Shown: positions 41,681-51,228, counted from the first letter of the stretch. The stretch is DNA of 64,000 bases from a virus (IMGVR_UViG_3300021255_002539:320001-384000), one strand, 5' to 3'. Numbers and translations: made by a program. The notes: a model not told the origin generated them from the sequence alone.

Positions 41681-41710
41681 CAAAAAAGACGACATCCGAA
41701 GATGCCGTCT
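41681..41710 (-). terminator. Intrinsic terminator closing the RNA array
   Basis: AGACGGCATC-TTCG-GATGTCGTCT-TTTTT on minus strand. Confidence 0.8.
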
Positions 41711-41963
41711 ATCAAAAAGATTCGAGGGTTTTCTCGCCCAAGGCAAGTCCCATATCGCATATCAATGGGAAGCCCTTTCAGGCGAAGGACACTATGCTGT
41801 GCGTGTATCGTCCATGCCAACCCTATACCCAACATAGACACGACCCACCGCCTGCCAATCCATTACAAAAGATGTTCCGGAAACACCCATTGGTGGATAT
41901 GGCTGCGCATTGGGAAGATGTTTAGGACAGATTTAACAAGCCAATCGGGATATAGAAGGAAAC

Positions 41964-42052
41964 TGGAGCCACAGGTCCGATTTGAACGGACGCGACCATA
42001 AAGGTGCGGGTTTACAAAACCCGTGCAATCGACCTGGCTATGCGACTGTGGC
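41964..42052 (-). tRNA. tRNA-Thr(UGU) with long variable arm
   Basis: CGGGT-TTTGTAA-ACCCG; CCA encoded. Confidence 0.75.
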
Positions 42053-42060
42053 CTCGAAAC

Positions 42061-42135
42061 TGGTGGACCGCCGGGGAGTTCAACCCCGCTATCTGCCGTG
42101 CAAAGGCAGTGTAATAAGCGATATACGAGCAGCCC
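42061..42135 (-). tRNA. tRNA-Ala(UGC)
   Basis: CTGCC-TTTGCAC-GGCAG; G3:U70; CCA. Confidence 0.85.
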
Positions 42136-42168
42136 ATTGTAAATCTTGTTATGTTCAATTATACGAAA

Positions 42169-42924
42169 TCATTTAAGTAGAAGTGAATCATTCAGAACTA
42201 TCTTGCCATCTACAAAGTCCTTATACTGTTTCTCACCAATAAAGTAGATTCTTATTCCTGGATTGTTTTCCAAGACAAGACGCATCTTTTCCTTGTCTTT
42301 GTCTGAATAATAACCCTTTACTTCAACATACTCGTTTGTATCTGGTAAGTAGAAATCTGGATTATAGGTTTTGCGTATACCATCTTTAATGTATTTCAAT
42401 GTTTTGTTCCTAATCCAATTTATACCATTTGCTGTCAATTTGTTGGCAACATTCTCCTCCCAATGACCCCTTACAGTATATTCAACACCATCTAAATTCT
42501 TCACTTTGTACCAACCAACATCTTTGAATCCCACTTTACACGAATCAAGATATTTAGAACGAATTTCAGAAAGTTTCTCCCGCGTTTCTTTGGTATGATG
42601 GAAAGTTCTTCCTTTCTGCGAGATTTTGTTTTTCTCTGCTATTTGTCTTACTTTTGTTGATGTTTCACTGGTCAATCCCTTGTTCCATGCCATTCCCTTC
42701 TTGAATCCATGTTTCTCTTTTCTGTGGATTTGCATTTCGTTTCTTGTATGAAAAAGACCTCCACAAATTGTACACTTCCAAGTGTGTTGTTGCCTATTCA
42801 CATTAAAATTGCACACATGGTGCTTTACTTGCTTCGCAATATACGAACATCTACAATGCTTGGAGCAGAACCTTCCGCTTCCATACGAGCCATCATGCTC
42901 GTTTCCACATACTTCACATATCAT
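42169..42924 (-). CDS. Free-standing homing endonuclease (Zn fingers, NUMOD3-like, PD-(D/E)xK)
   Basis: AWNKG, HTKETREKLS, YNPDFYLP...VEVKGY; AT-rich insert. Confidence 0.8.
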   Translation of the reverse strand: MICEVCGNEHDGSYGSGRFCSKHCRCSYIAKQVKHHVCNFNVNRQQHTWKCTICGGLFHTRNEMQIHRKEKHGFKKGMAWNKGLTSETSTKVRQIAEKNKISQKGRTFHHTKETREKLSEIRSKYLDSCKVGFKDVGWYKVKNLDGVEYTVRGHWEENVANKLTANGINWIRNKTLKYIKDGIRKTYNPDFYLPDTNEYVEVKGYYSDKDKEKMRLVLENNPGIRIYFIGEKQYKDFVDGKIVLNDSLLLK

Positions 42925-43045
42925 AATCTTTTTACCTTTAGTTTAATGTCGTTGTTCTAGCAACGACATATCTATTTATAATTATACGAAAAGTTGCCTC
43001 CCAACTTGTGTTGGCTAGAACCATGACGGTTGGGAAGCGCAATGT

Positions 43046-43121
43046 TGGTAGGAGGGGTGGTAGTTGCAACCACGACCCATTGCTTATAAGACAATCGCTC
43101 TTACTGCTGAGCTACCCTCCC
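43046..43121 (-). tRNA. tRNA-Ile(UAU)
   Basis: ATTGT-CTTATAA-GCAAT; CCA. Confidence 0.8.
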
Positions 43122-43235
43122 GTTGAAATGAAAAAGTTGAAGCCCAGGAAATGGGTCAAAGACACCGGTTTTCTTCCGGAGTGAAATTCCCATCTTCGCC
43201 GTTTGGACATTTCTGCTTTACACCTCCTGGACTTC

Positions 43236-43398
43236 TGGGAGTTGCATCCAGTGCGTTCAATCACTCCGCCACTATGCTGCGGGCTGCAACAAGGAGGGAT
43301 TCAAACCCCCGGTCGAGTATCCTATATAGGAGCATGGGTGGCAGAAAGCAACCGGTGCGCGATTGCCACCACTCGACTCTGAATGCTGTTATCTCCCA
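43236..43398 (-). ncRNA. Circularly permuted tRNA-like RNA (YrlA-like topology)
   Basis: T arm precedes a loop-closed acceptor stem and then the D arm; all closed by terminal helices. Confidence 0.6.
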
Positions 43399-43414
43399 TT
43401 TAACTTGAAAAACT

Positions 43415-43489
43415 TGGAGCGAACGATGGGTGCTGCCCCCACTTGATCCAACCTGGCAGATTGGTGTACTGCTGATGTACCACGTTCGC
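43415..43489 (-). tRNA. tRNA-Gly(GCC)
   Basis: CCAAT-CTGCCAG-GTTGG; atypical T-loop GGCAGCA. Confidence 0.8.
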
Positions 43490-43747
43490 ATTGAAATGGT
43501 GTGAGATTCGAGGACTCTTACCCCCATTACCATCAACTTGGAATGCGGACTTGACGTCCTAATCCACATTCTGCTTGATGACCAAGCGGACTCACCGGCC
43601 GAATGGCATTCTACCAAGGAGCGACCTTGGCATTGAAACTTGGAGCCCCGATACAAGTACGACTTGATCCAATCCTCCATTACTGGGTGGGATTGACATT
43701 CCCCGTTATGGAATTACCGAAGCATGTTGAAATCGTCTATATGAAAT

Positions 43748-43821
43748 TGGTTGTCCCGCCTGGGTTCGGACCAGGTCTAAGGGTATCAAAAACCCCTGTG
43801 CAGCCGATACACCACGGGACA
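43748..43821 (-). tRNA. tRNA-Gln(UUG)
   Basis: Loop TTTTGAT; U1:A72. Confidence 0.8.
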
Positions 43822-44276
43822 TTTTGAAATTGGCGGTGGCGTTGGGTTCGCACCAACAGTCTCGTGGGGCTTTGGGGAATTTTTAGTACGCACGAATGCA
43901 AGGCGAGAGCCTATAGTCAACTGAGGCAGAACTTGACATTCCAACCCCAATCCAAACTCGCCAACCCCAGGGTCACCTGGCTCCCTGCATGGAAGTTGTC
44001 AAGACCTCCACGCAACTTCTGTGACACTACTTGCTCCTCGTTCCCTTGGAACATGCCCTTTGTTCTTTTGTGTTTGAACTATCCACCATTGAAAGGGTCT
44101 GCAGACTGTCTTTACATTGGAATCTCTGCAGGGAAACCAACAACCAGACCTGACTAGCAGGGTTTCGTTTCTCGTCTGGTATGCCATCTAGCATAGCGAT
44201 ACACGCAGTGGGCTACGCTGCTCCCTGGGTCTGCTTTCCTCCCAGCTCAGCCCAACACGTTCTTGGGACTTGCATA

Positions 44277-44397
44277 TGGCGTCTGTGATATCCCACAATT
44301 GACTTCAATCAGCACATCGGGATTCGGACCACGGTTTCACTCTTCGTGTATTCTACCTTTTTGAACTATTTGTGCCTAATCTTCATGTGACAGACGC
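44277..44397 (-). ncRNA. tRNA-like RNA with extended acceptor helix and rudimentary anticodon arm
   Basis: GCGTCTGT/ACAGACGC terminal stem; D arm GTTC..GGTA-GAAT; T loop TCCGAAT. Confidence 0.5.
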
Positions 44398-44688
44398 ACA
44401 TTGAAATGCTTGAAGCGGAGATTGCTTATGTTTGACCGGTGCACCGGCAAGTTCATCGTGTTTACGGACCAGGAAAGAACCAGCTGACCCCTGAATCCTA
44501 TTTGTTAAGTGTCATGACACTTAACAACCCACTGGACGCTTGTTATGTCCTCTCCGCAGAATCTATCCAGGGGAAATCCACTTGTGGCATGCGATATATT
44601 TGGCGCAGGTGCCGTCGGCGCATATACTTTGTTTGCCGCACATATTCCCATATGAACCAATTGATCCACATGTGCCATAAGGGGAAAG

Positions 44689-44778
44689 TGGTGTGGAACG
44701 CCGGATTCGGACCGGCAATGTCCCGTTGGGGACGCAGGATTAGGAATCCTGTCGAGTGTCCAATTGTCGCAGTCCCAC
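44689..44778 (-). tRNA. tRNA-Arg(CCU) with long variable arm
   Basis: CAGGA-TTCCTAA-TCCTG; V arm GTCCC-CAAC-GGGAC. Confidence 0.75.
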
Positions 44779-44915
44779 ATGTTGAAATTGGTGGCTGTCT
44801 TGCGGGTATCAACCCCGCTGTCTCCCCAACGGGCGATGCATCAACCCATCTTGTCAGGGAACCCGTTTTACGCACAGGCCAGGACCAAATACCTGAGTAT
44901 CAAGCCATTGAAATC

Positions 44916-44990
44916 TGGCGGGGTAACGGGTAGTCGAAACCCGATAGTCTGCTCGACAGGCAGATGAACTAGCCGTTGTTCTATTACCCC
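44916..44990 (-). tRNA. tRNA-Asp(GUC)
   Basis: TCTGC-CTGTCGA-GCAGA. Confidence 0.85.
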
Positions 44991-45155
44991 GAAATGGTGT
45001 GGTCTACCGAGATTGATTTCTCAATCTCGGCTTCATGCTTCATCGTCCCAACCGTGCTTGGTTTTCGCTAATCTATTATTGGTCGGAACTCCACATGCAT
45101 GTCGTTCGCAACGCGAACGATCCCTGCGACCCACAGGTACTGAAACCAAATCGTC

Positions 45156-45242
45156 CAATTGTCAAAGAACAACCTTTGTCTAATGCGCAAGCATTATTCA
45201 AAGAGCATATCCAATTATACAACACATCCAGTCAAATGTAAA
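45156..45242 (-). promoter_or_regulatory. Internal array promoter plus boxA-like element
   Basis: TTTACA-N17-TATAAT, then GTTCTTTGACAATTG. Confidence 0.65.
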
Positions 45243-45291
45243 GTGGTTTCCGATGTTGGATTTGAACCAACGACTCCAATCGGAATCAAAC

Positions 45292-45367
45292 TGGTAGATG
45301 TGGAGAGAATCGAACTCCCGACGCATACCATGTGAAGGTATCGCTCTAGCCACTGAGCTACACATCC
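45292..45367 (-). tRNA. tRNA-Val(CAC)
   Basis: ATACC-TTCACAT-GGTAT. Confidence 0.9.
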
Positions 45368-45376
45368 ATTTGAAAC

Positions 45377-45455
45377 TGGGTCGCCGTGCAGAATTCGAAT
45401 CTGCGATTTCCTCGTTCACAGCGAGGCGTCTTAACCAGGCTCGACTAACGGCAAC
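45377..45455 (-). tRNA. tRNA-His(GUG)
   Basis: CCTCG-CTGTGAA-CGAGG; G-1:C73. Confidence 0.9.
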
Positions 45456-45462
45456 ATCTAAA

Positions 45463-45555
45463 TGGCGGATGAGGCGCGTCCCGGCCGCGCATGCCCGATT
45501 TCTCGGAGCCATTCGCTTTCCAAGCGAAGCTGTTTGCCAATTCCAGCACTCATCC
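45463..45555 (-). tRNA. tRNA-Ser(GGA)
   Basis: TTCGC-TTGGAAA-GCGAA; long V arm. Confidence 0.8.
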
Positions 45556-45563
45556 ATAAACTG

Positions 45564-45655
45564 CGGAGCAAGCAGGCTCTGCCCCTGCGGGGGACATTTC
45601 TGCCCCACGACGGATTAGCAATCCGCGCCCTTATGACTGACTTGGGTATTGCTCC
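45564..45655 (-). tRNA. tRNA-Ser(GCU), CCA not encoded
   Basis: GCGGA-TTGCTAA-TCCGT. Confidence 0.8.
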
Positions 45656-45666
45656 ATGTTGAAATC

Positions 45667-45750
45667 CGGATGCGGAGCGACTCGAACGCCCAATCCCGTG
45701 AAGGACACCTGAGTTCAAATCAGGCCGACTACCAATTATCACACGCATCC
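45667..45750 (-). tRNA. tRNA-Ser(UGA), CCA not encoded
   Basis: CCTGA-TTTGAAC-TCAGG. Confidence 0.8.
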
Positions 45751-45765
45751 ATAAATTGAAATCTG

Positions 45766-45851
45766 CAGATGGAGCTGGAATTGCACCAACATGTGACTTT
45801 CGCCACCCCGACTTTCGAGGTCGGACCTTTACTGTTTAGGAGAATCCATCC
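45766..45851 (-). tRNA. tRNA-Ser(CGA), CCA not encoded
   Basis: CCGAC-CTCGAAA-GTCGG. Confidence 0.75.
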
Positions 45852-46496
45852 ATCTTGTGAAATTGAAAAGGATATGGCGTTCCTGTTTCGCAAGATTATG
45901 AACCTTGGACGACATGGACTCAAAGAACTACTCCTGGTGGCTGGCAACATCTTCCGGAAGTTTTATGTGCTTGGCTGTTTCAGCACCTCCAGTTGGCAGA
46001 TATTTCGTTCTTAAGGCAAGCCATCTTGCCTTGGTATTTTTCTTTCCTCACGAAAGAAAAACAACCAACAAAAAGAAATCATCTATTAAATCAAAAGAAC
46101 CATCCGATTGGGAGTTGCTTCACCTTGCGGTTCATCAACCATCGCAGGACTTCCCACGACTTTTCAATATATCCCATTTATCTGCATCCAAATGCCAGCA
46201 ATTGCCATCTTGTTGAGAGTTATCACCTTCGTATGTTCTAGTTTATCAGAACACACCTCTCGGTGGTTGCCGTGGTGAACATTGCATTTGGGTAGCCTTT
46301 CTTTCGGGTATGCACTCAATGGAAGGACTTGAACACTTCATGGTAATGGGCTTTTGCTCATCTACATTAAGATGAACATCGCCAGCCAACCTACCATCAT
46401 GGCGAATGACCGAACGAGTTGCCACTACTCTCGTCACTGAGCTGCCGTTGAAGCATTAAGCATACTGGGTTTAACTCCCCATCTGGTTCATTTAAA

Positions 46497-46574
46497 TGGC
46501 ACCTCTGGTCGGACTTGCACCGGCAAATATCCTGGATGAAAACCAGGTGACTCTACTAATTTGTCTACAGAGGC
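46497..46574 (-). tRNA. tRNA-Glu(UUC)
   Basis: CCTGG-TTTTCAT-CCAGG. Confidence 0.85.
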
Positions 46575-46581
46575 ATTGAAA

Positions 46582-46657
46582 TGGCAGTCTTAATGTGATT
46601 TGAACACATGTTTCGGGAGTGAGGTTCCCGCGTCCTAACCAACTAGACGATAAGACC
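46582..46657 (-). tRNA. tRNA-Glu(CUC), C33
   Basis: CGGGA-ACCTCAC-TCCCG. Confidence 0.8.
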
Positions 46658-46781
46658 ATTCATTTGGCAATATTCAACCAATGTTCCAAGGGGGAATCGG
46701 ACCCGTTGTTGCCTATCGTCATACTTCTCACCAGAGTAGGAACATCGGTCATGGAATTGCCCAACCATCTTGCAAGTCATT

Positions 46782-46858
46782 TGGAGAGCAAGGTGGGAAT
46801 CGAACCCACATTTGCGGATTTGCAGTCCGCCGCCAAGACCACTATTGGCAACTCGCCC
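46782..46858 (-). tRNA. tRNA-Cys(GCA)
   Basis: GCGGA-CTGCAAA-TCCGC; U73. Confidence 0.9.
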
Positions 46859-46939
46859 ATAAAAATGTGGAAGGTGGGTCTGGTTACCCACAACTTGTTC
46901 CTGGACAGGATTGTTTTTGCTGAAGACTACTTCCACAAA

Positions 46940-47013
46940 TGGCAAGGGCGATGCGAATCGAACACATGTCTTCAGTTTTGGAGACTGAGATACTACCACT
47001 GTATGACGCCCTT
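46940..47013 (-). tRNA. tRNA-Trp(CCA)
   Basis: TCAGT-CTCCAAA-ACTGA; A1:U72, G73. Confidence 0.9.
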
Positions 47014-47021
47014 ATTGAAAC

Positions 47022-47101
47022 TGGTAGGACTGGCGAGACTCGAACTCGCAAATCTCTTCGTTCGTAGCGAAGTGCAGTAGATCCGATTTTGCTACAGTCC
47101 C
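47022..47101 (-). tRNA. tRNA-Arg(ACG)
   Basis: CTTCG-CTACGAA-CGAAG. Confidence 0.9.
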
Positions 47102-47109
47102 ATTGAAAT

Positions 47110-47183
47110 TGGTTGGGGATGATGGTATTGCGCCACCTCTAAGAGGTTCAGAGCCTCCTGTACCACTTTTATACGAATCCCCA
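47110..47183 (-). tRNA. tRNA-Gln(CUG)
   Basis: GGAGG-CTCTGAA-CCTCT; U1:A72. Confidence 0.85.
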
Positions 47184-47193
47184 ATTGAAATCC

Positions 47194-47379
47194 TCAAACT
47201 TCCTCGCAGAAGTGCTTGCTTATCCTGAAACCCACTCCCTTGAGTTGATACACAGGCTTGCCATCGTTTCCAGTGCATTCGCCAATCACCTTGAAAGTCT
47301 CCCCTTGGTGTTCCCTAATCCACCTCTTGAAGTCCTCTGATTGCCAGGACGCGCTTGATTCAACTACCTTTACGAACAT
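47194..47379 (-). CDS. Small hypothetical protein inside the RNA array
   Basis: AAGGAGG SD; 61 aa. Confidence 0.65.
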   Translation of the reverse strand: MFVKVVESSASWQSEDFKRWIREHQGETFKVIGECTGNDGKPVYQLKGVGFRISKHFCEEV

Positions 47380-47605
47380 GTCTTTCCTCCTTGTTCTTCT
47401 TGATGAAATGGTGGCAACATCCGATTCTCACGGAACCTGCGACCACCAATGTCGCTGCGCTCATATGACCACCCTATCTAGAGTCAGATGGTCAAGTCCC
47501 TGTTTCTGGTGGAAGGCGAATTCAATTCCCTTCATACCCTTTGGGATTATACTATATTGCCTAAATTGGTGGACTAGTGCCGCACAAGGCGACATTGACC
47601 ATAAA

Positions 47606-47680
47606 TGGTGGACCGGCGGGGTAACGCTCCCCGACTCTTTCGTTGCGAACGAAAAGTGCTGCTTCTATCACTATCGGCCC
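47606..47680 (-). tRNA. tRNA-Ala(CGC)
   Basis: TTTCG-TTCGCAA-CGAAA; G3:U70. Confidence 0.8.
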
Positions 47681-48036
47681 ATTGAAAGGGAATGTTCAAG
47701 TTATCGGGCCCAGCCCTCTGGCTTCTGCAAGGTTGGAACTTGCGAGAACTTTGCTGCGTGGGGAAACCCCCTTGGCAACCGTAGCCAGTTTGTCATTTGT
47801 TAACTATGGTGGAAAGTTCCGACTTGAATGAACTTGAACAAAAGCGCACACCTACCACATGGCTGGACTCGAACCAACACCTCCGCCCTATGACGGGCGG
47901 TGTGCCACCATTACACTACACATGATTTCGACCACTGCAAGATGGTCTTGCCCGGTGTCTGGCAAAATGTTCTCAATTATACGAAATAATCACCCTCAAA
48001 TCTGTTGGCTGCAACCATGAGTTTGGGGGTTGAAAT

Positions 48037-48369
48037 TGGTGGAGCGGAGGGGAATCGAACCCCTGTCCGAAACAGTCCTGTTGGACGCTTTCTACAACAG
48101 TTTCCTATGTCATTTAACCTCTCATCATAATAGGAATCAGATGACAGGCGAGAATCCCCATTGTAATGTTCCATCGGGTGGGGAAACCAGACCCAATGGA
48201 CATGCCAGACAATGAATTCCCTACTCAAGCCCCATCTGGCGTCAGGCTTTTTTGGTAGGCTTAAGCAGCCATTCTGTAATCGTTGCCGTTTACTTGTTTT
48301 GGAATTTACGCCTCCCGGCATGGTGCTGCGTCTTTGGGATATTGCTCCGTCGAATACCTGAACCGCCCC
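48037..48369 (-). ncRNA. ssrA: tmRNA, tag (A)GNDYRMAA*
   Basis: 5' GGGGCGG..TTCGAC; 3' GGGGTTCGATTCCCCTCCGCTCCACCA with G3:U70; tag ORF 48287-48261. Confidence 0.9.
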
Positions 48370-48379
48370 ATTGTCAAAT

Positions 48380-48455
48380 TGGTGGGAGGATGTGGGATCG
48401 AACCACAACCTTCGGATTTTCAGTCCGTAGTACACACCAAGTATACGATCCTCCC
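48380..48455 (-). tRNA. tRNA-Phe(GAA)
   Basis: Loop CTGAAAA. Confidence 0.9.
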
Positions 48456-48462
48456 GATGAAA

Positions 48463-48642
48463 TGGATGAGCGGGGTGGATTTGGACCACCAATGCCAAGG
48501 ACGAACAGTCGCACATTGAAAAGGAGCTACCTTTCTGGCAACTAGCGAAAACCCATGGGCATTGTGTTTTTTAACTCGCTTGTTATCGTCAATGGCTACC
48601 AGATTACGAATCCGGCGCGTTTGCCAATTCTGCTACCGCTCA
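48463..48642 (-). tRNA. tRNA-Thr(CGU)-like with ~105-nt variable-arm insertion
   Basis: Acceptor TGAGCGG/CCGCTCA-TCCA; CCGGA-TTCGTAA-TCTGG; T arm GGTGG-TCCAAAT-CCACC. Confidence 0.7.
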
Positions 48643-48645
48643 AAT

Positions 48646-48731
48646 TGGTTGCCAGTCAGGGTAACGCTCCCCGTGGGCTTTGAAACAAGTGATTTACAGT
48701 CACTCCTCGCTCTTTACGAGACTACCTGGCA
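48646..48731 (-). tRNA. tRNA-Tyr(GUA)
   Basis: AGTGA-CTGTAAA-TCACT. Confidence 0.8.
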
Positions 48732-48737
48732 ATAAAT

Positions 48738-48815
48738 TGGTTGGGCGAGTGGGTCACGATCCCACGACCTTCTGTGTATCAGACAGACTATCTAAACCAA
48801 CTGATATACCGCCCA
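48738..48815 (-). tRNA. tRNA-Ile(GAU)
   Basis: TCTGT-CTGATAC-ACAGA. Confidence 0.85.
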
Positions 48816-48828
48816 ATTGAAATCTTAA

Positions 48829-48902
48829 TGGTAGCGAGTGAGGTAGTCGAAACCCCATTGAAGGATTATGATTCCCCTGTTCTGCCGTTGAACTAACTCG
48901 CC
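48829..48902 (-). tRNA. tRNA-Met/Ile2(CAU)
   Basis: Loop ATCATAA. Confidence 0.8.
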
Positions 48903-48905
48903 ATT

Positions 48906-48983
48906 TGGAGCTGGAAGAGGGTGACGATCCCACCACCTGCGGTTTACGAAACCGCCGCTCTACCAAGCATGAGCTATTCCAGC
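48906..48983 (-). tRNA. tRNA-Thr(CGU), canonical size
   Basis: GCGGT-TTCGTAA-ACCGC. Confidence 0.85.
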
Positions 48984-48994
48984 ATTGAAATCGT

Positions 48995-49073
48995 TGGTAG
49001 GGATGATGGGATTCGAACCCATACTACGATGACCCTGAATCATCCGCCGACTGCCAAATTGGTCTAGTCTCCC
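48995..49073 (-). tRNA. tRNA-Leu(CAG) with short variable loop
   Basis: GATGA-TTCAGGG-TCATC. Confidence 0.7.
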
Positions 49074-49079
49074 ATTATC

Positions 49080-49153
49080 TCCCGATGGAGGGAGTCGAAC
49101 CCACAACCAGGGAGTTTTAAATTCCCCTGCTCTGCCAATTGGCATACATCGGG
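49080..49153 (-). tRNA. tRNA-Leu(UAA) with short variable loop, CCA not encoded
   Basis: GGGAA-TTTAAAA-CTCCC (31:39 mismatch). Confidence 0.65.
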
Positions 49154-49199
49154 TCTAACACAGACAAGGAACAATGAACAACGAACCACAACAACAAAT

Positions 49200-49283
49200 T
49201 GGTGTGCGATAAAGGACTTGAACCTTCACATCTTTCGACACAGCCACCTCAAGGCTGCGTGTCTGCCGTTCCACCAATCGCAC
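49200..49283 (-). tRNA. tRNA-Leu(GAG)
   Basis: CAGCC-TTGAGGT-GGCTG. Confidence 0.9.
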
Positions 49284-49516
49284 AATAAAGGCCGCACCTA
49301 CCTCCAAAGTGGGAGTCGAACCCACGGGCAACACGTCTGCGCCCATGCCGATATTTGGAAGTTTTGTCCCTTATGAGACGCGCCTGATGCAAGGCGCAAC
49401 ATTGAAAGCCATCTTCTGACCTTTACATACGCAGTTGGAGTTGAACCAACCTCTCCTCCCCATGAGGGGAGCAACTATCCGAGAATACGAAAGGTGTGGA
49501 CAATCAATGCTTGAAA

Positions 49517-49591
49517 TGGTAGAAGCGACAGGTGCTGCCCCTGCATATCACATCTTAAGAGGATGTTGCCTAGCTGCTCGGCCACGCTTCC
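49517..49591 (-). tRNA. tRNA-Lys(CUU)
   Basis: ACATC-CTCTTAA-GATGT; T loop GGCAGCA. Confidence 0.85.
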
Positions 49592-49646
49592 AAAAATTGC
49601 TCCCCAACCTATGTTGGCACGAACCATGAGTTCGGGAACATTGAAA

Positions 49647-49737
49647 TGGCTCGGGTGAGAGGGTTCAAACCTCCAGGGGCGCAGTTTGCGTCTCGGCTTA
49701 ACAGGCCGTGCCGTTATCAGTTACGGTTTACACCCGA
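49647..49737 (-). tRNA. tRNA-Asn(GUU) with long variable arm
   Basis: CGGC-CTGTTAA-GCCG; G73. Confidence 0.75.
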
Positions 49738-49745
49738 ATAAATCT

Positions 49746-49820
49746 TGGAGCATCGTACCAGTGCTGCCCTGGTCTACTTCAGCTTGGAGGGCTGACGGAC
49801 GGCTGATGTCCCAACGATGC
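49746..49820 (-). tRNA. tRNA-Gly(UCC), C33
   Basis: TCAGC-CCTCCAA-GCTGA. Confidence 0.8.
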
Positions 49821-49828
49821 ATTTGAAA

Positions 49829-49916
49829 TGGTCCCGAGAGTGAGACTCGAACTCACACGTCTTTATGGGACAGCGGATTTTGAGTCCGCCAAGTCTACCA
49901 GTTCCATCATCTCGGG
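49829..49916 (-). tRNA. tRNA-Leu(CAA)
   Basis: GCGGA-CTCAAAA-TCCGC. Confidence 0.9.
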
Positions 49917-49923
49917 TTGAAAT

Positions 49924-49997
49924 TGGTCGGGGTGAGTGGAGTCGAACCACCGCCGTATGAACCCAAATCATAAGTGCTACCGTTATACCACACCCCG
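49924..49997 (-). tRNA. tRNA-Pro(UGG)
   Basis: TATGA-TTTGGGT-TCATA. Confidence 0.9.
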
Positions 49998-50521
49998 TTT
50001 GAAATTGAAAAGGTCGTTCTCAAAGGCAATCTATCGTGTTCTGGACAACACGGGTCAATTACTCCCTAGTTGCTTTCTCCCAGATACATGAATGTGTCTT
50101 ACTAATTTACGCGCAGGCACAATGTTGCTCTAGACCAATCGCAGGCCACTTGTGGGTTTTCTGCCCAATCCGTGCTTCTTACACCATGGAGCAATTCGAC
50201 TTGCCTTTGATTCATCGCATGAAAAACCAACTTTTACCTTGTTGGACTCGAACCAACCTCTCCTCCCCTGCCGGGAGGCGTACTGACCACTAATACGAAA
50301 GGTGTGGATTTCCATGCTAAATTGAAGTGGCTGTATCTCGCAGTCATGCCACATTGAAATTGAACAAGGCACTATTTGGATGACAAGTATCCAAAAGATT
50401 CCCAGCTCCGAACCGGGCGTTTCAATAACTAAGGCATAGACTGTCCATCTTGTCATAATGGTCATCTACACCCATAGCGGAGGCGTTTATCTCCTCAATC
50501 TTGTCGTGCCATGAAATCTAC

Positions 50522-50604
50522 TGGTAGCGGGTGACCGAGTTGCACGGTTGCTTTCGCACCAGGGTATGAACCTGGCAAGGGCGCTGCTCCCTAACACACC
50601 CGCA
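50522..50604 (-). tRNA. tRNA-Met(CAU), initiator-like 1:72 mismatch, with small V arm
   Basis: CCAGG-TTCATAC-CCTGG. Confidence 0.7.
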
Positions 50605-50730
50605 CTCTTGAAATAGCAAAACCATTCGCTTTAGACCCAAGGTTCTCATCTGAGTTTCCTCCAAGGGCTGACTCGCGCATGAGTATTCCCACATGGGGAA
50701 CAGTCTTTCCATCTTTCTTTTCCTCTATGT

Positions 50731-50850
50731 CAATTATCAAAGATCGCTTGTGATTGCCTTGCGTGGTTCAAGCAAACCTTGCTTTGCTTTAGCAAACCTT
50801 GCTTTGCTTTCACATCACATATTATACCACATTTGACTGGTATTTGTAAA
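50731..50850 (-). promoter_or_regulatory. Array promoter P2 plus boxA-like element
   Basis: CCCCC-TTTACA-N18-TATAAT, then GATCTTTGATAATTG. Confidence 0.7.
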
Positions 50851-50875
50851 GGGGGTTTGAAAAGTTTTTTGAAGT

Positions 50876-50952
50876 TGGTTGGGGTGACGGGGCTCGAACC
50901 CGCATCCCACGGTTTAAAGGACCGTTGCAGAATCCACTTTTGCTACACCCCA
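50876..50952 (-). tRNA. tRNA-Lys(UUU), C33
   Basis: ACGGT-CCTTTAA-ACCGT. Confidence 0.8.
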
Positions 50953-51102
50953 TCTGTTGAAATCCACTAAAAGCGCAAGCTCTAGACCTGGGGCTAATGA
51001 CTTCCTCCCAGGAAGACTCGCAATGCTCTACGCTCAGTCTTTACTTCTATATCCCACGAAGTTTGCTGGTTCTCGTGAACCCTCAAACATCTGTCCTAAA
51101 TT

Positions 51103-51228
51103 CAATTGTCAAAGATCAATGTCCTTGTCCCTGGACACTTGGGGTCTCAACTTGATTGATTCACTTGTGAATCCTCTCGTCTCAACGCTGCATATTATAT
51201 CATATTCTCTTCATGCTTGTAAAGGGGG
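51103..51228 (-). promoter_or_regulatory. Array promoter P1 plus boxA-like element
   Basis: CCCCC-TTTACA...TGATATATAAT, then GATCTTTGACAATTG. Confidence 0.65.

Follow-up and report, generated by a model that had tools for sequence, protein, structure and literature searches.

The window analysed here is a stretch of 64,000 nucleotides (nt) (G000:C1:320001-384000) of a 414,060-bp IMG/VR megaphage record with terminal repeats and 48% G+C, and it carries an array of transfer RNA (tRNA) genes within which we investigated seven tRNA-like elements, A to G. The array comprises about 45 tRNAs and a transfer-messenger RNA (tmRNA) gene in about 9 kb (window ~41,960–50,960, minus strand) and ends at a strong terminator at 41710–41687; internal promoter-like sites were found at 51223, 50850 and 45242. 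All seven elements are located on the same minus strand, to which window coordinates refer throughout, and have their low coordinates at 43497 (A), 43641 (B), 43831 (C), 44789 (D), 44995 (E), 47409 (F) and 45244 (G). A sequence-only reading of this DNA had proposed that they form one cassette of CCA-ended tRNA-like RNAs, and an NCCA end was indeed confirmed at each of these positions. The part of the proposal that stands is that non-tRNA RNAs with tRNA-type ends occupy tRNA slots; judged by comparison with related genomes, however, the seven elements are of four kinds and do not constitute one uniform RNA system.

The elements had also been described as sharing the short TTTC(AA) linkers of the real tRNAs. 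The linker itself was confirmed: between 42 and 52 kb the minus strand holds 36 copies of TTTCAA, where about 2–3 would be expected from the length. Positions -10 to -1 before the tRNAs follow the consensus CAATTTCAAT, and the same motif lies ahead of A, B, C and D. The linkers hold for six of the seven elements but not for G, whose 3' flank reads CTTTACA, which holds the -35 hexamer of an internal promoter, instead of TTTC. In the array ARAGORN at default settings called 27 tRNAs and the tmRNA, and Rfam at the gathering score called 18 tRNAs. Standard tools thus under-call tRNAs here, because relaxed ARAGORN settings add about 10 further tRNAs with good acceptor stems but odd D and T loops. 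The true tmRNA at 48037–48369 is the sole tmRNA match in the window. The phage encodes no CCA-adding enzyme (PF01743) and no tyrosyl- or tryptophanyl-tRNA synthetase.

Relatives were reached through the T4-type major capsid protein in IMG/VR, which led to two large genomes, G1 (433,895 bp) and G2 (418,068 bp), and to a 201,557-bp fragment, G3. A 997-aa neighbour gene used as query found no relatives, and BLAST against GenBank phages returned only a generic likeness to tRNA-Trp. A 19-base word of D used as query added a fourth IMG/VR contig close to G1 (G4) and six further distinct metagenome contigs. The megaphage reads TAG as a sense codon, and in-frame TAG is also present in the G2 homolog of a TAG-rich gene of the window. 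G1, G2 and G3 each hold a homologous but rearranged array. Their capsid proteins are 80–96% identical to that of this phage over the matched parts, and tRNAs of the same anticodon, compared between this genome and G1, G2 or G3, show a median identity of about 63%. The tRNA genes of the arrays are thus being replaced or are diverging quickly, and since the arrays evolve this fast, conservation within them is informative. D is 92, 91 and 88% identical to its counterparts in G1, G2 and G3, respectively, and F is 72–74% identical to all three. An identity of at least 88% to all three relatives is attained by D but not by any tRNA of the array; by this measure D is the most evenly conserved gene there.

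D is a 119-nt RNA at 44789–44907. In an alignment from ten genomes (ten sequences, nine distinct) mean column identity is 94%, and the fold consists of five helices with 35 pairs, 98.7% of the cells being paired. A closing stem (44907–44903 with 44796–44792), followed by CCA at 44791–44789, encloses the hairpins P1 (44895–44880), P2 (44879–44861, loop GCGUAAA at 44873–44867), P3, a long hairpin (44860–44823), and P4 (44818–44802). Four compensatory pairs were observed, one in P1, one in P4 and two in inner P3, and a U-G to C-G change supports the P2 hairpin. The helix order is that of a type-II tRNA: terminal stem, 4-bp stem with 8-nt loop, 5–6-bp stem with 7-nt loop, long extra hairpin, T-like hairpin and ACCA, the latter being invariant. 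The segment GGCCTGT, which the sequence-only reading took for the acceptor of D, turned out to be the 5' strand of the local hairpin with the GCGTAAA loop; the conserved unit starts 27 nt further 5', at 44907, immediately behind the leader.

The P2 loop reads GCGUAAA, GUGUAAA in G2 and, with 6 nt, GGUAAA in L060, so that GUAAA is fixed and the preceding base is free. The real tRNA-Tyr of the clade has the loop CUGUAAA. The loop CGTAAAAC occurs a single time in the array, namely in D. D lies before tRNA-Phe in the relatives and between tRNA-Asp and tRNA-Arg in this genome. Covariance models, which were run across related phages for D and F, returned one copy of D per genome and exactly one full-length copy of F in each of four genomes. 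Among the seven elements D is, from its conservation and fold, the clearest selected gene that is not a tRNA.

The second RNA, F, is tRNA-shaped and measures 153 nt (47409–47561). Its 5' end had been placed at 47506, but conservation continues for another 55 nt in the 5' direction, and the true end is at 47561, the first base of an 8-bp acceptor that covaries (47561–47554 with 47420–47413, tail ACCA at 47412–47409). From an alignment of eight genomes (eight distinct sequences) RNAalifold predicted 40 pairs, 15 of them with a change on both sides. The pair cells are 96.6% paired, none of 500 shuffles reached the observed values, and slid controls gave at most 2 compensatory pairs. In the acceptor we counted 3 compensatory pairs, and in two genomes one of its U-G pairs is replaced by C-A. 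A 4-bp helix in the position of the D stem (47552–47549 with 47460–47457) encloses hairpins A (47545–47498) and B (47494–47466), so that 90 nt forming two hairpins stand in for the D loop. They are followed by a 5-bp hairpin in the position of the anticodon arm (47455–47439), then by 3–5 unpaired bases and the T arm (47434–47420, loop UGAGAAU), which across genomes consists of a CCG/CGG stem with one more pair and a 7-nt loop of the form YGNNAAU. The acceptor branch can be divided as 8/3 or 7/4, 11 pairs in all, and shows no 12-bp split of 8/4 or 9/3. Seven of the sequences end in ACCA or GCCA.

Hairpin A carries the invariant word UGAAUUC in its loop. Hairpin B consists of nine covarying pairs followed by an invariant G.A and A-U and by a 7-nt loop, CUCUAGA in this genome (47483–47477) and (C/A)UCUAGA in all eight sequences, whose shape is that of an anticodon loop (U33, anticodon CUA). 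Each of the loops of hairpins A and B holds a six-base palindrome. The loop of the hairpin in the anticodon-arm position is 5, 6 or 7 nt long depending on the genome, and because of this variable length the hairpin located there cannot decode. A short frame within F is not conserved in the aligned relatives.

F as an amber decoder is unlikely, given separate tRNA(CUA) genes in this genome, in G3 and in G2. Here a tRNA(CUA) of conventional length lies at ~G000:297,903–297,981 with TTTCAAT ahead of it; it has a homolog in G3, and ARAGORN finds the tRNA(CUA) of G2. The amber-suppressor tRNA of G3 (L073, G3:C1:114645–114738, minus strand) has the loop CCCUAAC, with C33 in place of the near-universal U33, and the copy in this genome has the anticodon loop CUCUAAC. 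Next to F, between it and tRNA-Ala(CGC), we noticed a 33-nt hairpin (47567–47599) that ends in UCCACCA and is found in G3 and L062 and absent from L068. The hairpin begins with a repeat of the 3' acceptor strand of this tRNA-Ala and so looks like a partial duplication of the end of that tRNA.

D and F both lie within the phage tRNA cluster on the same strand and hold no reading frame. That they evolve neutrally as pseudo-tRNAs, an outcome the sequence-only reading had allowed for, is ruled out by purifying selection and covarying helices. Rfam searches at the gathering score and at E up to 10, including short-range searches, assigned none of the seven elements to a family. Searches with RF00005 (E up to 10) and ARAGORN in default, -ps90, -ps80 and mitochondrial modes recognised none of them as a tRNA, and missed several true phage tRNAs too. 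A 7-bp acceptor with discriminator and CCA is present in F, where it covaries, in G and in B; A, C, D and E have 4–5 Watson-Crick pairs or none. A conserved 7-nt loop in the correct position of the anticodon arm was found in none of G (where the arm is deleted), F, B and D. BLAST detected no paralogs of the elements within the genome. The core motifs of D and F are absent from 185,579 prokaryote species genomes, and a search for them in IMG/VR found nothing beyond the same four relatives. Folding z-scores were -1.6 to -1.9 for A, B, D and G, -0.7 to -0.9 for C and -4.85 for E only; folding energy alone is weak evidence, and the support for D and F comes from the comparison with other genomes.

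G (45244–45285) had been described as a bare minihelix, and its 5' end and terminal stem were borne out: the 42 nt consist of a 7-bp stem, 7 unpaired bases, the canonical T arm GTTGG-TTCAAAT-CCAAC and ACCA. G is, however, an internally deleted tRNA-Val(GAC), a remnant from which most of the D arm and the entire anticodon arm are missing. In G1, G2 and G3 a full tRNA-Val(GAC) stands in the same slot, directly after tRNA-Val(CAC). G matches the first ~21 and the last ~31 nt of the G2 gene at ~90%, and ~35 nt between these two parts of the gene are absent from it. G is the only one of the seven for which a full ortholog occupies the same slot with both flanks alignable. By this alignment it is a deletion derivative present only in this genome and does not represent a conserved class of minihelices. 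A minihelix of 7-bp acceptor, T arm and ACCA is accepted in vitro by RNase P and by CCA-adding enzymes. Since G keeps what these enzymes need, it could still be released and CCA-protected.

Upstream of E lies an internal sigma-70-like promoter (45214–45242; TTTACA, a spacer of 17 nt and TATAAT; 11/12 matches in a promoter scan), which is predicted to drive E, tRNA-Asp, D and tRNA-Arg. Two words that resemble the E. coli rrn boxA (TGCTCTTTAACAA) come after this promoter, TGCTCTTTGAATAA at 45207–45194 and TTGTTCTTTGACAA at 45172–45159. The leader is ~210 nt long, and E is its last, structured part (44997–45134), ending four bases before tRNA-Asp (44990). The consensus fold with the G2 ortholog has 35 pairs, with a 7-bp helix (GTGGGTC at 45134–45128 with GACC-CAC at 45004–44997) around three inner hairpins. 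The 3' hairpin has 11 bp and a GAAA loop here; in G2 it is shorter and of different sequence, yet it is kept. The supposed terminal ACCA is mostly paired within the closing helix and reads ACGA in G2, so that E does not survive as a CCA-ended RNA and is, on this consensus fold, a conserved structured leader RNA.

The three remaining elements are confined to narrower lineages. A is a 135-nt unit between two leader motifs (43497–43631) with a 5' hairpin (loop UCGCU), a relic resembling an anticodon arm (loop AUUCCAA, UCC), and ACCA in this genome only. A counterpart is found in G1 only, where the 5' hairpin shows 3 compensatory pairs and the 3' part is not kept. The acceptor-like stem ascribed to A was not recovered, there being no terminal stem of at least 6 pairs, and the G1 ortholog lacks the CCA. 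The stem-loop with AUUCCAA is suggestive of a decayed Gly(UCC) tRNA, since it looks like the anticodon arm which that tRNA has in this clade. In G1, however, an A-like unit exists in addition to a Gly(UCC) gene, so that descent of A from a tRNA is no more than possible.

B (43641–43723) is a cloverleaf-shaped unit of 83 nt located directly after a leader, with a 9-bp terminal stem (3 G-U), three arms, one of them GUAA-tipped, and the tail UCCA. As with G, its 5' end and a terminal stem of at least 7 bp agree with the sequence-only reading. The terminal pairing is 7/7, and 9 pairs at this position are estimated to arise in ~0.5% of cases by chance. RNAfold predicted a four-way junction (z -1.7) that has no anticodon loop, and a 9/3 reading is possible. 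B shows no likeness to Gln tRNAs, which speaks against a decayed Gln(CUG) tRNA suggested by its position. C is a 257-nt unit right after TTTCAAT (43831–44087), with 5 terminal pairs (GGUGG/CCACC), a near-canonical T arm (GUUGG-UGCGAAC-CCAAC) and GCCA; the segment 43831–43966 originally singled out is the 3' half of this unit. As a structured element C could not be upheld, its fold being no better than that of shuffles. A tRNA with an intron or insert was rejected as well: 0/3975 internal-deletion variants were called as tRNA at default or relaxed settings, and shuffled controls sometimes are; a search for a group I intron gave no hit. Homologs of B and C were found neither in the whole records of G1–G3 nor elsewhere in this genome. 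The simplest view of A, B and C takes them for tRNA genes, decayed or remodelled, that still stand in tRNA slots, and B and C are best treated as lineage-specific tRNA-derived units.

Several further features of the array and its surroundings were noted. The tRNAs missed by default ARAGORN and mostly by Rfam lie at 43415–43489, 45463–45555, ~45564–45655, 47110–47183, 49517–49591 and 49746–49820 and are, in that order, Gly-GCC, Ser-GGA, Ser-GCU (by eye), Gln-CUG, Lys-CUU and Gly-UCC; they have 7-bp acceptors and non-canonical D and T loops, for example the T loop GGCAGCA. A 251-aa gene inside the array (42169–42924) encodes a phage endonuclease I domain, together with a weak match (E 0.01) to a C2H2 zinc finger, and is probably a mobile nuclease gene; in G3 both the gene and its flanks are conserved. 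A 61-aa open frame (47194–47379), with a strong AAGGAGG ribosome-binding site and no Pfam match, lies between F and tRNA-Gln(CUG). The stretch 45860–46495, between Ser(CGA) and Glu(UUC), offers ~600 nt without a credible frame or a detected tRNA except a low-score Tyr call at 46314–46401; several of its blocks are 76–98% conserved in G1–G3, and it probably holds one or more further structured RNAs. A 180-nt unit after a leader motif (48463–48642), with a perfect 7-bp terminal stem and UCCA, is 90% (G2) and 80% (G1) conserved and is located directly before D in both. Outside the window, a 552-aa open frame at G000:C1:~392,600–394,242 (minus strand) encodes a TROVE/Ro60 homolog.

On balance we lean towards an account in which D and F are non-decoding tRNA-shaped RNAs, G is a deleted tRNA, E a leader, and A to C lineage-specific units, combined with the following route of release. 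The array would be transcribed as long precursors, from which units that follow the (A)UUUCAAU leader and possess a terminal stem and NCCA would be released by the host tRNA-processing enzymes, RNase P cutting the 5' end and 3' trimming proceeding back to the encoded CCA. The acceptor/T/CCA module would then serve as a handle for release and stability. D and F, single-copy and clade-wide, are probably freed in this manner, D keeping the order of a type-II cloverleaf and F a covarying acceptor/T/N-CCA module.

Several points weigh against this account. The terminal stem of D is short (4–5 Watson-Crick pairs) and never varies in the 10 sequences, so that covariation gives no test of it. It is separated from the neighbouring helices by gaps of 7 and 5 bases, and the T-like arm stays 5 nt away from it unless non-canonical U.C, G.A and A.G pairs form; in our own reading such pairs might extend the stem. 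Position 33 of the D loop is C in most genomes, which does not exclude decoding, because the real suppressor tRNA of G3 also has C33. F ends in GAC(A) instead of CCA in G1 and its near-twin G4. Finally, the processing of D and F is something we infer from sequence features, and neither RNA is linked to any particular protein.

As to what D and F do, we tentatively suggest that, by mimicking tRNAs, they may keep a tRNA-recognising protein occupied in trans, although we would not call this probable. The means would be, for D, the invariant Tyr-like GUAAA loop together with the long extra arm and, for F, the invariant CUCUAGA loop, which is similar to that of an amber suppressor. We arrive at this suggestion because the unpaired loops are as invariant as the stems, because they copy anticodon loops, and because PtuAB and Septu are defences documented to target tRNA-Tyr (PMC11555353, PMC13096335). 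A role as decoy or toxin antidote is possible, and all that speaks for it are the invariant anticodon-like loops of D and F.

D and F might instead have no job in trans and be cis-acting structural spacers for the folding or cutting of the precursor, or tolerated stable by-products. Both lie between tRNAs in one transcript, and E shows that conserved structured non-tRNA segments do occur in the precursor. Against this, D has been relocated, lying between Asp and Arg here and before Phe elsewhere, yet is still 88–92% identical, and loops and single strands are as invariant as stems, which points to sequence-specific recognition rather than to mere folding. We consider the spacer explanation unlikely.

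Within the tRNA-mimic reading a more specific version can be drawn up, though we hold it to be rather unlikely in this particular form: in a clade that reassigns TAG, D and F could be sponges or regulators for proteins that recognise tRNA-Tyr (D) and the suppressor tRNA (F). On an additional arm of its tRNA body, F would present the anticodon loop of the amber suppressor in copied form (CUCUAGA, a sequence that includes UAG as well), and D would imitate tRNA-Tyr by its GUAAA loop, its long extra arm and the A before CCA. Possible targets would be a tRNA-Tyr nuclease of the Septu/PtuAB type for D and, for F, a factor that acts on either the suppressor tRNA or the recoding switch.

It could also be argued that both RNAs do decode, if unconventionally: D would be a tRNA-Tyr(GUA) whose acceptor has been remodelled, and F an oversized reader of amber (CUA) for this TAG-recoded phage. 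D does have the type-II helix order, the A before CCA, a G-C first pair and an xxGUAAA loop as in the tRNA-Tyr of the clade; hairpin B of F presents a perfect 7-nt loop of anticodon type, with U33 and CUA, invariant in 8 genomes; and ARAGORN and Rfam overlook many of the phage's true tRNAs. However, there are tRNA-Tyr(GUA) genes of the ordinary kind as well as a separate suppressor tRNA(CUA), and neither D nor F was called as a tRNA even at relaxed thresholds. The CUA loop of F sits on an 11-pair arm in the position of the D loop, while the loop in the anticodon position varies between 5 and 7 nt, and D has 4–5 Watson-Crick acceptor pairs and, in L060, a 6-nt loop. Decoding by D and F is thus improbable.

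Lower still we rate the original proposal in full, that all seven elements are one co-evolved cassette of CCA-ended decoys absorbing anticodon nucleases, acceptor-end toxins or stringent-response enzymes. All seven are NCCA-ended and stand in tRNA slots, D and F have invariant anticodon-like loops, and phage tRNAs are known to counter tRNA-cutting defences (PMC10264068, PMC11464382, PMC11555353). But G is a deletion remnant of this genome only, E is a leader whose CCA is absent in G2, the CCA of A is absent in G1, and B and C are without relatives; the set is not conserved as a set, its elements being found at different places in the relatives. Least credible is a role of D or F as a Y-RNA-type partner of the phage Ro60. 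In its favour are the TROVE/Ro60 homolog encoded ~26 kb from the array and the tRNA mimicry of bacterial and phage Y RNAs (PMC4201824). Against it, Rfam YrlA (RF02553) gave no match at D or F, a Y RNA ends in a Ro-binding stem and not in an acceptor stem with free CCA, GNCGAA was not found by eye in D or in the window copy of F, and the Ro60 gene is not adjacent to either.

A tRNA array in a phage is commonly taken for a list of tRNAs; here the most evenly conserved gene is a 119-nt tRNA-shaped RNA that is not a tRNA, and a second RNA, F, combines a genuine acceptor/T/CCA module with a displayed loop of anticodon type. If the two were indeed mimics directed at tRNA-binding proteins, they would add a layer of RNA decoys to the recently described contest between phage tRNAs and tRNA-cutting defences, and F might also touch stop-codon recoding. 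The array further illustrates that CCA-ended tRNA-like elements picked by eye mix RNA genes, deletion remnants and operon leaders, and that relatives are needed to separate them.

Several known systems resemble these RNAs in part. Among them are RNA C and RNA D of T4, small stable RNAs from the T4 tRNA region, which like D and F are non-tRNA RNAs located among phage tRNA genes, co-transcribed with them and of unknown role (PMC3014915). D and F come from an unrelated megaphage clade, and F has a covarying acceptor and T module; the likeness is drawn without sequence comparison. Phage tRNAs with anti-defence function, namely T5 tRNA-Tyr against retron-Eco7 PtuAB, T6 tRNA-Tyr against Septu and T5 tRNA-Lys against PARIS (PMC11555353, PMC13096335, PMC11464382, PMC10264068), are likewise RNA genes of phage tRNA regions, and their value lies in immunity directed at tRNAs; D has a Tyr-type loop and a long extra arm. 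They are functional tRNAs that replace cleaved host tRNAs, however, whereas D and F look like non-decoding mimics to which no defence system has been linked.

The precedent for the proposed route of release is YrlA of M. smegmatis, a tRNA mimic that is cut by RNase P and gains CCA (PMC4201824). YrlA and the bacterial Y RNAs mimic tRNAs with a T arm and an acceptor-like stem (PMC4201824), and Ro60 is encoded by this phage; YrlA is permuted and ends in a Ro-binding stem, whereas D and F end in the acceptor position with an encoded CCA. The tRNA-like domain of tmRNA resembles F in that acceptor, T arm and CCA frame a large non-tRNA insert. F differs from it by its 153 nt, by having no conserved frame, no G3:U70 pair and no Rfam tmRNA match, and by the presence of a separate tmRNA in the phage. 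The 8/4 and 9/3 allo-tRNAs, which include phage and rumen examples, share with F (8/3 or 7/4) and B (9/3) a longer acceptor and a shorter T stem (PMC5389517); they keep a normal anticodon arm and translate, unlike F and B, which are without a conserved 7-nt loop in the anticodon position. Fragments of tRNA genes and pseudo-tRNAs (compare PMC9897764, PMC3399842) are the nearest counterparts of G, as a partial tRNA gene, and of A and C, as pieces of tRNA type, but G differs from such pseudo-tRNAs in that its perfect 7-bp acceptor, its canonical T arm and its ACCA are all retained.

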